The position numbers were made by a program, and so were the translations under genes. A stretch of 64,000 nt of DNA from Eledone cirrhosa. Taxonomy: Eukaryota. Numbering within the stretch: position 1 is the first letter of the stretch; each line of letters starts with the position of its first letter. The DNA is taken from contig OZ024743.1 in NCBI GenBank assembly GCA_964016885.1, positions 96,534,001 through 96,598,000 of the forward strand, given 5' to 3'. Positions 14,341 to 49,565 of the stretch are shown piece after piece. The notes beneath the pieces are model-generated. The model did not search any database and was not told the DNA's origin. It was given only the letters and a program-made list of their open reading frames with translations.

Positions 14341-14538
14341 TGTATTAAGTGTTTCCGTAGGATAGGTAAAGGAAAGGAGAGTGCTCTATGTAGGCTACAG
14401 AGTTATTTAGTTATGTAATAAACAAAATAAAATTTCATTCTGATGAACGATTTCAGATGTCTGTGTCGAGCTCGTCTGTCTTCGTGAAACCTTTGGTAAA
14501 TGGAATAATTGTCTTATATTGTTTATTACATAACTATA
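14341..14538. mobile_element. Penelope-like pLTR / retrozyme-like remnant with inverted arm and hammerhead
   Basis: tagttatgtaataaacaa / ttgtttattacataacta inverted arms enclose an HHR; ends in (TA)n. Confidence 0.6.
14432..14506 (+). ncRNA. Type I hammerhead ribozyme, complete core, predicted cleavage after GUA (14498)
   Basis: Stem I atttcatt/aatggaat; CTGATGA 14440-14446; stem II acga..cagatg/cgtctg..tcgt; GAAA 14486-14489; stem III cc-ttt-gg; TA. Confidence 0.8.
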
Positions 14539-15540: not shown

Positions 15541-15544
<4 letters not shown>

Positions 15545-15679
15545 CAAAGGAATTGTGGTAAGGAACCAGATGGACCATAACGCACCAGAGTACTCAATAC
15601 TTAGGGTAGTAGAGTGGGAAATAGGAAAAAATATGACCCCAATGGCAGAGCTCTGCCGTCGGGGTCATACTTTTTTCCT
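15541..15679. mobile_element. TA-flanked fold-back element (ataacgaagg family), palindrome centred on predicted HHR stem III
   Basis: Same leader as 26841 and 27753; hairpin 15623-15679 with axis in ggcagag|ctctgcc followed by GTC-ggggtc. Confidence 0.7.
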
Positions 15680-26840: not shown

Positions 26841-27031
26841 ATAACGAAGGAAATGTGGTAAGGAACCAGGTGGACTATAACGCACCAAAGTACTCAATAC
26901 TTAGGGTAGTAGAGTGGGTAATAGGAACAAGTAAGACTCCGACGGCTGAGCTCAAGCCGTTTCGACGGCTAATTCTGTCCAGAATTAGCCGTCGAAACGG
27001 CTTGAGCTCAGCCGTCGGGGTCTTACTTGTT

Positions 27032-27036
<5 letters not shown>
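26841..27036. mobile_element. TA-flanked fold-back element; 116-bp palindrome holding the 3' half of a hammerhead
   Basis: Hairpin 26921-27036 (axis 26978-26979); GAAAC-ggct-tgagctc-agcc-GTC-ggggtc on both strands. Confidence 0.75.
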
Positions 27037-27060
<24 letters not shown>

Positions 27061-27066
<6 letters not shown>

Positions 27067-27630
27067 ATACTTTGGGAGGGTCATGTTGCCATTAAGAAAC
27101 ACACGCACCAGTTATTATAATAAATTTATAAATTTAGGAATTTATGAATTTCCGGTTGGTTGGTTCCACAACCAGATGATTGTTTATATATTGTCAAAGT
27201 TCTTTCGTCACACATTCTGTGACCTCTTCAGTGACTGGGGATTCTTTTCTTTGTTTTTGTGCCTCTCCTTTTCTGAAAAGGAGAGGCACAAAAACAAAAA
27301 CAAAAACAAAAACAAAAACAAAAAACAAAAAACAAAAAACAAAAAAAAACAAAACAAAAAAAAGAATCCCTAGTCACTGAAGAGGTCACAGAATGTGTGA
27401 CGAAAGAACTTTGACAATATATAAACAATCATCTGGTTGTGGAACCAACCAACCAACCGGAAATTTATAAATTCCTAAATTTATAAATTTATTATAATAA
27501 ATTGAAGTGAAAGCAACTGGTGTGTGTGTGTTTCTTATTGGCAACATGACCCTCCCAAAGTATAACAATATCGGTTTCAACACACGTTTTCAGATAAAGA
27601 ATCTTGCTAAACAAATTCAGAAACGAAATA
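27061..27630. mobile_element. Large fold-back Penelope-like pLTR remnant with two mirror hammerhead-like motifs
   Basis: Arms 27061-27273 and 27275-27570 are inverted about the axis at 27274; (TA)n on both sides; ends in MTLPKYNNIGFNTRFQIKNLAK. Confidence 0.75.
27373..27415 (+). ncRNA. Minimal type I hammerhead-like motif (mirror copy 27193-27235 on minus strand)
   Basis: gtca-CTGAAGA-g-gtcaca-gaatg-tgtgac-GAAA-gaac-TT-tgac. Confidence 0.6.
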
Positions 27631-27752
27631 TATATATATATATATTATATATATATATAGAGAGAGAGAGGGTTCCTAATGATTTCTACCGAATGAAACA
27701 GTTCTAGTCCTGCAGAAGCCTTTCTATATTAAATATATATATATATATATAT

Positions 27753-27948
27753 ATAACGAAGGAAATGTGGTAAGGAACCAGATGGACCATAACGCACCAA
27801 AGTACTCAATACTTAGGGTAGTAGAGTGAGTAATAGGAACGAGTAGGTCCCCGACGGCTGAGCTCAAGCCGTTTCGACGGCTAATTCTGGACTCCAGAAT
27901 TAGCCGTCGAAACGGCTTGAGCTCAACTGTCGGGGTCCTACTCGTTCC

Positions 27949-27951
<3 letters not shown>
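27753..27951. mobile_element. TA-flanked fold-back element (sister of 26841)
   Basis: Hairpin 27833-27951, axis 27892; same leader and HHR 3' half. Confidence 0.75.
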
Positions 27952-27980
<29 letters not shown>

Positions 27981-28274
27981 TAGATAAATATACACGGGTG
28001 TGTATGATTGTGTATAAAAGATTATATTAATAAAAGGAATTCCAACTTTGTCTGATTTACTCGTTTTATTTACAATCCTTTAAAATTTATAATGGTATTA
28101 GAATGAAATAGTATGGTAGAATATTAAATGTTAAGTGTTAATTGAACAAGTACTTTCATGCTTTCGCAATCTTCAGGTTCATATTGTGTGGTGACAGTCA
28201 AGTTTGCAATTTTCAACTGTGACAGTTGAAAGTTGGAATTCCTTTTATTAAAATATATATATATATATGTAGTG

Positions 28275-48260: not shown

Positions 48261-48532
48261 AAATGGCATAGATATTACAATAGGAGGAAACATAATAGTA
48301 CCACTAATGATGTTGCAGATGTGTGATGAAAGAACTTTGATAGACTATATATATATATTTATATCTGTATTTTTAACCGCTGGTCAATCAATGATAACCA
48401 TTGATTGCCAAATAAATTAACTATAGAAATATAAAAGATACAGAAGCGAAAACCAACCCAAACAGGGAGTGTGTTCTGCTATTATTTCTGGCAATATTAT
48501 AACAATATGACCCTCCCCAAGTATAACAATAT
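48261..48532 (+). mobile_element. Penelope-like pLTR remnant (MTLPKYNN family) with decayed HHR
   Basis: CTAATGA-t-gttgca-gatg-tgtgat-GAAA-gaac-TT at 48304; ends atgaccctccccaagtataacaat(at)n. Confidence 0.65.
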
Positions 48533-48819
48533 ATATATATATGCATTCATGGTTGAATAATAAAAATAATATTATTATTATTTGGTTTGTTTGCAAGCCG
48601 AAAGCTTCATTACACCATGTGTTCAAGATGACTAATGTCATCCTTTTGTTCCAGTGGTAGTAGAGAGAAAAACAATCTACATTTGTTTCAGGGTTATTGC
48701 TCCTTATCAAGACTGTTTATTTCTCTACCTTCTGCTACACCCTGGACCAGTTGAGAATATATAGTATTCTCTAAAGTATACATCGGCTGATTAGCCTAAT
48801 TTACATACCAAGCAATTTT

Positions 48820-49098: not shown

Positions 49099-49565
49099 TT
49101 TTGCGAGGTTTTTGATATGAAATCGTGTGTCGAGACAAATATTGTTATACTTGGGGAGGGTCATATTGTTGTAATAATATTGCCAAAATTAATAACAGAA
49201 CACATTCACTGTTTGGTTGGTTTTCGCTTCTGTATCTTTTATATCAGTTAATTTATTCGGTCCTTAATGTTTACCATTGACTGATGGCGTAGACATACAA
49301 TACAACAGGAGGAAACATAATAGCACCACTGATGTTGTTGCAGATGTGCAAAGAAAGAACTTTGTTAGACTATATATATGTGTTTGTGTCTATATTATAT
49401 CTGTACTTTTGACCGTTGGTCAGTCAATGGTAAACAGTGAGGACCGAATAAATTAACTGATATAAAAGATACAGGAGCGAAAACCAACCAAACAGTGAGT
49501 GTGTTCTGTTATTAATTCTGGCAATATTATTACAACAATATGACCCTCCCCAAGTATAACAATAT
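49099..49565. mobile_element. Fold-back Penelope-like pLTR remnant (MTLPKYNN family)
   Basis: Inverted arms 49138-49290 and 49410-49565; decayed HHR in loop (CTGATGT..GAAAgaacTT, 49329-49362); (TA)n on both sides. Confidence 0.75.

Follow-up and report, generated by a model that had tools for sequence, protein, structure and literature searches.

Inverted copies of a Penelope-like element in Eledone cirrhosa: probable head-to-head joining of two separately primed cDNAs

Introduction

A 64,000-nt stretch of the Eledone cirrhosa genome (the window) harbors two sister elements, each with a palindrome that carries half of a hammerhead ribozyme motif on both of its strands, and this raises the question of how such a palindrome is made. 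The earlier note on this locus had speculated that a nascent cDNA, after copying stem II of the hammerhead, snaps back on that helix and primes itself, thereby erasing the catalytic strand. Inverted copies with a one-sided tail are a known architecture of Penelope elements, the origin of which is called undefined in PMC8557442, while PMC3846280 has proposed self-priming on an antisense template for the palindromes at Penelope inverted junctions. As another precedent, in LINE-1 twin priming the second strand of the target acts as a primer at an internal RNA site and the two cDNA ends are joined, resulting in an inversion (10.1101/2024.12.14.628481). Here we examine the junctions of this family across the genome.

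Results

Sister elements in the window

The two sister elements (26841-27036 and 27753-27951), bordered by (TA)n on both sides, each comprise an 80-bp unique part, hereafter the tail, and a 57-59 bp hairpin (Table 1). Both hairpins are real, with arms that are 98% complementary in copy 1 (26921-26977/26980-27036) and 95% in copy 2 (27833-27891/27893-27951). As the earlier note had described, GAAAC, stem III, GTC and GGGGTC are found on both arms of both copies, CUGAUGA is absent, and the arm differences between the copies are concerted, as seen here at two diagnostic columns; stem III has a GAGCTC loop. These copies thus harbor the 3' half of the hammerhead only; an Rfam scan of the window yielded no match at the gathering score. 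We number the unit from the A of AGTCCAG in loop II (+1), the sense strand of the element being the minus strand of the window. The junctions of copies 1 and 2 differ and are of mirror types, with the tail-less arm extending further in copy 1, and the axis of a third, older copy coincides with GAGCTC (15648-15653), a self-complementary sequence in loop III.

Table 1. Features of the studied family and of other repeats in the window
Feature	Position	Strand	Unit coordinates	Remarks
Copy 1, tail	26841..26920	-	+62..+143	One side only; outer end adjoins (TA)n, probable first RT start site
Copy 1, tail-bearing arm	26921..26976	-	+6..+61	Stem II 3' strand through stem I 3' strand; GAAAC 26963-26959, stem III with GAGCTC loop, GTC 26943-26941
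Copy 1, tail-less inverted arm	26977..27036	+	+2..+61	Further 5' than the tail arm; outer end joined to (TA)n via TAT, probable second RT start site
Copy 2, tail	27753..27832	-
Copy 2, tail-bearing arm	27833..27893	-	+1..+61	First base is the A of AGTCCAG
Copy 2, tail-less inverted arm	27894..27951	+	from +4 (or +3 with shared base)
Third, older copy	15541..15679	-		Zero-loop palindrome
Second family, probably Penelope-like	27059..27630			Inverted insertion within the TA run next to copy 1; arms 27059-27273 and 27275-27571; tail 27572-27630, one side only
Third repeat family	27985-28255			Short terminal inversion; CTGAAGA..GAAA motif on minus strand
Hammerhead-like motif, relaxed scan	14432-14510			CTGATGA, GAAAC, 8-bp stem I; long stem II region with GAGCTC
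Diverged second-family relatives	48280-48535 and 49139-49565			One an inverted pair; ribozyme core decayed

A large family of Penelope-like elements

The 3-Gb genome contains 30,907 exact matches to a 27-mer from the tail and 15,251 short palindromes, counted with spacers of up to 30 nt between stem strands, vs. 0 for the reversed-pattern control. The first 100 tail matches listed served as a junction-independent sample, in which junctions were parsed by split point with hand correction of 18 rows; three of 99 copies were dropped (a satellite, a diverged subfamily and a chimaera), and locus L053 was left out as it is the same locus as L052. The satellite, at L098, is a tandem array of ~53-nt units made from part of the tail. 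The outer ends of the element are fixed, at +61 and +143, and lie at (TA)n: a TA run follows the tail end in 97 of 99 sampled copies, and the tail-less end is at a TA or GA run in 54 of 65; any target-site duplication would be masked by a (TA)n target. Assembled contigs from four sequencing runs of unknown kind display a depth plateau over +1..+141 and loose ends in TA at +61 and +141, which argues against an assembly artefact and has no bearing on expression.

In long copies the sequence extends upstream, by way of a 3' UTR, to an ORF, and partial tandem or inverted pLTRs with a one-sided tail are present, 21 long inverted insertions having been examined. At L183, a partial tandem plus inverted copy, the element goes on past the tail end (+143) into a 5' UTR and a 718-aa ORF starting ~270 nt after +1. 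At E<=1e-20, 2,217 of 8,000 scored candidates are related to this ORF; its predicted structure (pLDDT 90.6) has telomerase RT as the best Foldseek match (TERT 3du5, E 1.8e-8, TM 0.34), while sequence searches of Pfam and PDB with it returned no match. The motifs RWR, DKT, CNCPDRSIC, CNLC-EE and N..CKH fit the definition of the Hydra clade, which asks for RWK-like and DKT motifs, a CxCX5C linker, and CxxC and CxH around E and N (PMC8557442), and VIY..AYIG and the motifs downstream of it, a candidate C-terminal GIY-YIG endonuclease, align by eye, without a profile match, with the published Hydra alignment. With an RT-encoding ORF of this fold, the family is a Penelope-like element, as the earlier note had supposed, and, judged by its motifs, one of the Hydra clade.

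We also considered whether a fixed palindromic unit had been amplified as a MITE-like DNA element or from a palindromic master. Forty scored copies do share one junction at 97-100% identity, having been selected by similarity to the query, but there are many junction types, each recurring across subfamilies, the 80-nt tail is found at one end only, and the unit passes without a break into the 3' UTR and ORF of an element that encodes RT. There is no pair of fixed terminal inverted repeats, and the junctions vary, in line with the earlier note's position that this is no DNA MITE; we regard amplification as a fixed unit as hardly credible. The sampled short copies are likewise single or inverted, with half ribozymes and without head-to-tail monomers of whole ribozymes, and a non-LTR retrozyme was rejected.

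The hammerhead in long copies and the position of the axis

A whole hammerhead motif is found in long copies (6,488 matches), which read ACCCC-(U/C)UGANAA-G..CGGCUA, a ~38-nt loop and UAGCCGUC-GAAAC. Stem II in these copies is CGGCUA(UU)/(AA)UAGCCG, closed by the ~38-nt loop, and the predicted fold arranges stems I-III around the conserved core, as in a type I hammerhead, with 90.5% of cells paired vs. 24-49% when the pairing was slid. All four bases occur at N7; among 100 matches listed for a pattern that required A8, the core pair is U3:A8 in 78, a C3.A8 mismatch in 21 and G3 in 1. Among 12 closely related copies no pair had changed on both sides, a comparison of low power. The earlier note had recognized the 3' half correctly, and long copies do hold a 5' half, as UUGANAA or CUGANAA but not as CUGANGA; the canonical CUGANGA master that it had envisaged has 8 matches in the genome, all of them chance or chimaeric.

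As stem II of long copies is closed by a ~38-nt loop, the left "stem strand" in the window is a mere reverse complement of the right one. The 14-bp "stem II" of the window is the inversion itself, and its axis, which had been taken for the loop of a natural stem II, is situated at the 3' end of loop II. The axes of the palindromes do cluster within the stem II domain, as had been predicted, but at one site in loop II rather than on a helix.

These features bear on snap-back at stem II. Priming on this helix requires that the 5' stem strand and loop of the master remain between the arms, and the exact product so predicted has 0 matches vs. 15,251 short palindromes. Nor is the catalytic strand erased; both arms end before it, and it is missing because they stop short of it. 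The axis within the stem II domain would suit such snap-back, part of loop II is retained in one sampled copy out of 99 (L062), and some of the 403 genome-wide matches with the axis on stem III or loop III, a minor class, could be helix-primed; against this, the junction of L062 is not of the helix-primed type, long copies invert at scattered positions, and a neighboring family keeps its ribozyme core on both arms (see below). We deem it most improbable that the palindromes arose in this manner.

Arms made at insertion

One element of the earlier proposal, that the palindrome is built anew at each insertion, is borne out by the many junction types and by the arms of 55 short copies, which are concordant at 206 of 217 diagnostic cells vs. 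44% between copies. Rare variants in short copies occur in both arms in 6 cases and in one arm only in 65, an indication that the arms are not homogenised afterwards. In 19 long insertions the arms are 98.9% alike within and 85.6% alike between insertions, with the own arm being the best or tied match in 17; in short copies this is so in only 20 of 55, the concordance being mostly at the level of the subfamily. The arms of L091 carry diagnostic letters of different subfamilies, which suggests two template RNAs or conversion.

Mirror junctions

A snap-back from a tail-bearing cDNA cannot yield a tail-less arm that extends further 5', and a hairpin from a tail-less cDNA cannot gain a tail. With the tail held fixed, the genome-wide patterns comprise 3,293 matches in which the tail-less arm goes further and 3,572 in which the tail arm does (48:52, near but not at 50:50; p=0.0008), and the insertion-bearing subset is divided 37 vs. 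39. The tail-less arm goes further in 37 of 78 short inverted copies and the tail arm in 29, with 12 equal; among the 21 long insertions, 11 have a longer tail-less arm (by up to kilobases) and 7 a longer tail arm, the two being about equal in 3. Heavy truncation affects the tail arm in 620 cases and the tail-less arm in 287, a full tail-less arm is accompanied by a tail arm of <=~30 nt in 840 matches, and 7 tail arms out of 88 end within +58..+67, at the putative second primer site. This skew and these stops are expected if an outer cDNA must displace an inner one on a single RNA. As a separate observation, long A or T runs fill the junction at L055 and L112, where both arms reach loop II.

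Another way to a palindrome is for one cDNA to fold back on a micro-hairpin of 1-4 bp and copy itself, with later inversions and deletions giving rise to the mirror classes. About half of the junctions, with the tail arm further and a loop of 2-6 nt, look as this would have it, as does the concordance of the arms; self-priming has been proposed for such palindromes (PMC3846280), and inverted duplications with small hairpins are described at LINE-1 breaks (10.1101/2024.12.14.628481). Later spacer flips and central deletions could mimic part of the mirror symmetry (small age check, 14 vs. 7 copies). However, this route is at odds with our data in several respects: 1) flipping would have to be near equilibrium while the 65 single-arm variants remain uncorrected; 2) kilobase one-sided deletions would be needed in pairs that are 99% identical (L187, L196); 3) neither the 620:287 excess of short tail arms nor the stops at +58..+67 are predicted; and 4) zero-loop junctions exist. 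We consider fold-back on a micro-hairpin to be quite improbable.

Inner ends near +1

The inner ends of the arms cluster near +1/+2, with 127 of 166 at -7..+8 and modes at +1 (34) and +2 (20), and non-inverted copies and cross-family chimaeras also start near +1. Since many arms continue in genomic sequence for 1-5 nt beyond +1, this end is a cluster and not a point; both arms are at or past +1 at 4,366 loci, with the genomic T in 73 of 100 such ends listed. Where the base before +1 was neither genomic nor from the other arm (judged by eye in the first 100 listed), it was G in 55, C in 26 and A in 19, vs. T 87, C 13 and G 0 among 100 matches listed for long copies. With G:A at 54:46 at control position +5, the G excess at +1 is significant (p=0.007), and copying of a cap would be expected to leave an extra G; this signal is mixed with extra C, and templated CAG duplications could explain part of it. 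A TA-rich box is present at -29..-31 and TT(T/C)AGTC at +1, which we take to resemble the TATA and initiator consensus motifs. Penelope promoters have been located in the pLTR (PMC2377424), and TATA- and Inr-like motifs have been noted there (PMC3846280). From these features we surmise, with less assurance than for the joining of two cDNAs, that the element's own mRNA may begin, capped, at +1, with the ORF following ~270 nt downstream. A shared arm end at the site of ribozyme cleavage was rejected, with only 6 of 166 ends at +41..+44, several of them with microhomology.

Alternatively, two cDNAs may be end-joined as we propose, with their common end in loop II marking a block to RT or an RNA processing site, by virtue of a sub-hairpin in loop II or a cut in read-through RNA, rather than a transcription start. 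A sub-hairpin predicted to span -4..+4, with its 3' strand over +1, makes such a block or processing site possible, and the spread of the ends from -5 to +8 and the extra C besides the extra G are in keeping with it. In contrast, the modes fall on two purines, G is in excess at +1 over the control position, template jumps to other RNAs occur exactly at +1, and this site precedes the ORF by ~270 nt; in addition, RT passes the site freely in the 6,488 long matches, and among 12 copies no compensatory change supports the sub-hairpin. A block or processing site is in our estimation unlikely.

Several composite copies were seen in passing. At L069:1330-1600 (L030 being this locus as well), a GC links the element's 5' UTR, retained through codon 8, to the +1 of another unit, a partial tandem that apparently stems from a template jump at the RNA end. 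At L033, the studied family is joined at its +1 to sequence related to the repeat at 27985-28255. A chimaera at L031:1250-1570 comprises the 5' half of the ribozyme motif of the second family and the 3' half of that of the studied family, joined via a shared CAGAAT.

A second family beside copy 1

The insertion at 27059-27630 belongs to a second family, probably Penelope-like judging from its architecture and motif. An intact minimal hammerhead motif, CTGAAGA-G, is present on both of its arms (27231 minus, 27377 plus), and its axis lies upstream of the ribozyme, off any helix, so that the core is kept on both arms. One arm only has an expanded (CAAAAA)n.

Discussion

Taking the junctions together, we think it probable that the palindromes represent two separately primed cDNAs of one RNA, likely run off at a start in loop II and end-joined head to head. 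We postulate that the element-encoded protein cuts both strands of a (TA)n target, with each strand priming a cDNA on the same RNA, one starting at +143 and carrying the tail and the other at +61, each start site being at a TAT that matches the target. The tail-primed cDNA would have to displace the other one and would sometimes stall; both would likely run off at the 5' end of the RNA, a transcription start within loop II, and their 3' ends would then be joined via 0-4 nt of microhomology or short templated inserts. With an RNA that begins at +1, this would lead to a short palindrome, a run-off product akin to the "strong-stop" kind, while a read-through RNA would give long inverted copies with scattered axes. 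As it would lack the 5' half of the ribozyme, an RNA from +1 could not cut itself; a start at +1 suggests how the template could escape destruction by the ribozyme.

This scheme can be set against what is described for related elements. As in the Hydra clade (PMC8557442), the studied family has a single ORF with what by eye is a candidate C-terminal endonuclease, the RWR, DKT, CxCX5C, CxxC and CxH motifs, (TA)n targets, a hammerhead in the 3' region, and an inverted 5'-truncated copy with a one-sided tail. It is nonetheless a family different from Hydra-1_Obim, its DNA and peptide motifs being without a match in the supplement of PMC8557442; its tail is ~80 nt in contrast to the 30-40 nt given there for the clade, and it has a U3:A8 core with a ~38-nt loop II whereas the Hydra ribozymes listed there have CUGANGA and mostly short loops. 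U3-A8 is a known core variant of Penelope ribozymes (PMC4209133). The Cercyon element of Schistosoma, described in the same study, shares U3-A8 covariation, dual motifs on opposite strands and a palindromic loop III with our family, which differs from it in a stem III of 5-6 bp, a long loop II and copies that are mostly 3' halves.

The Poseidon element PAc of Anolis offers the closest biochemical comparison. In vitro, the PLE protein, a predicted dimer, cuts and extends both target strands, and RT starts at two RNA sites between which the tail lies, with uncleaved RNA as the template (PMC11167929). The AT-rich targets and the two tail-bounding start sites of PAc are matched by the sites that we deduce from the genome for the studied family, and the two-cDNA reading fits the two start sites seen in vitro (PMC11167929). 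PAc is reported to prime without target homology, whereas the putative start sites here are at TAT matching (TA)n, and in the text consulted PMC11167929 gives no mechanism for the head-to-head junction. In contrast to the self-priming proposed in PMC3846280, the junction statistics here favor two sense-templated cDNAs. LINE-1 twin priming yields two pieces without overlap, whereas our family appears to have a fixed second site that the first cDNA usually passes through, stopping there in 7 of 88 cases, and a fixed site together with running through results in a palindromic product. In a plant retrozyme, the transcription start is located 5' of the ribozyme, and the RNA made is cleaved (PMC12029980). 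In the open-access literature searched, we found neither the joining of two cDNAs for Penelope inverted repeats nor a start inside the ribozyme. The architecture was already known; a genome-scale test of how the inverted repeats form was not found in that literature.

For this family, tens of thousands of junctions separate the models and favor two separately primed cDNAs. We offer more tentatively, and with rather less than an even chance in our own judgment, the combined proposal that Penelope inverted repeats result from a two-ended reaction on one RNA and that the promoter of this family fires within its own ribozyme. If this is true, the 5' end of the mRNA would be immune to self-cleavage while read-through RNAs would carry the whole ribozyme; RT jumping to other RNAs at the run-off end would give rise to tandems and cross-family chimaeras; and the >15,000 genomic hairpins would correspond, in inserted form, to the strong-stop DNA of retroviruses, with the start site and the cap recorded in them. 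Those hairpins, if transcribed, may also be a large potential source of dsRNA.
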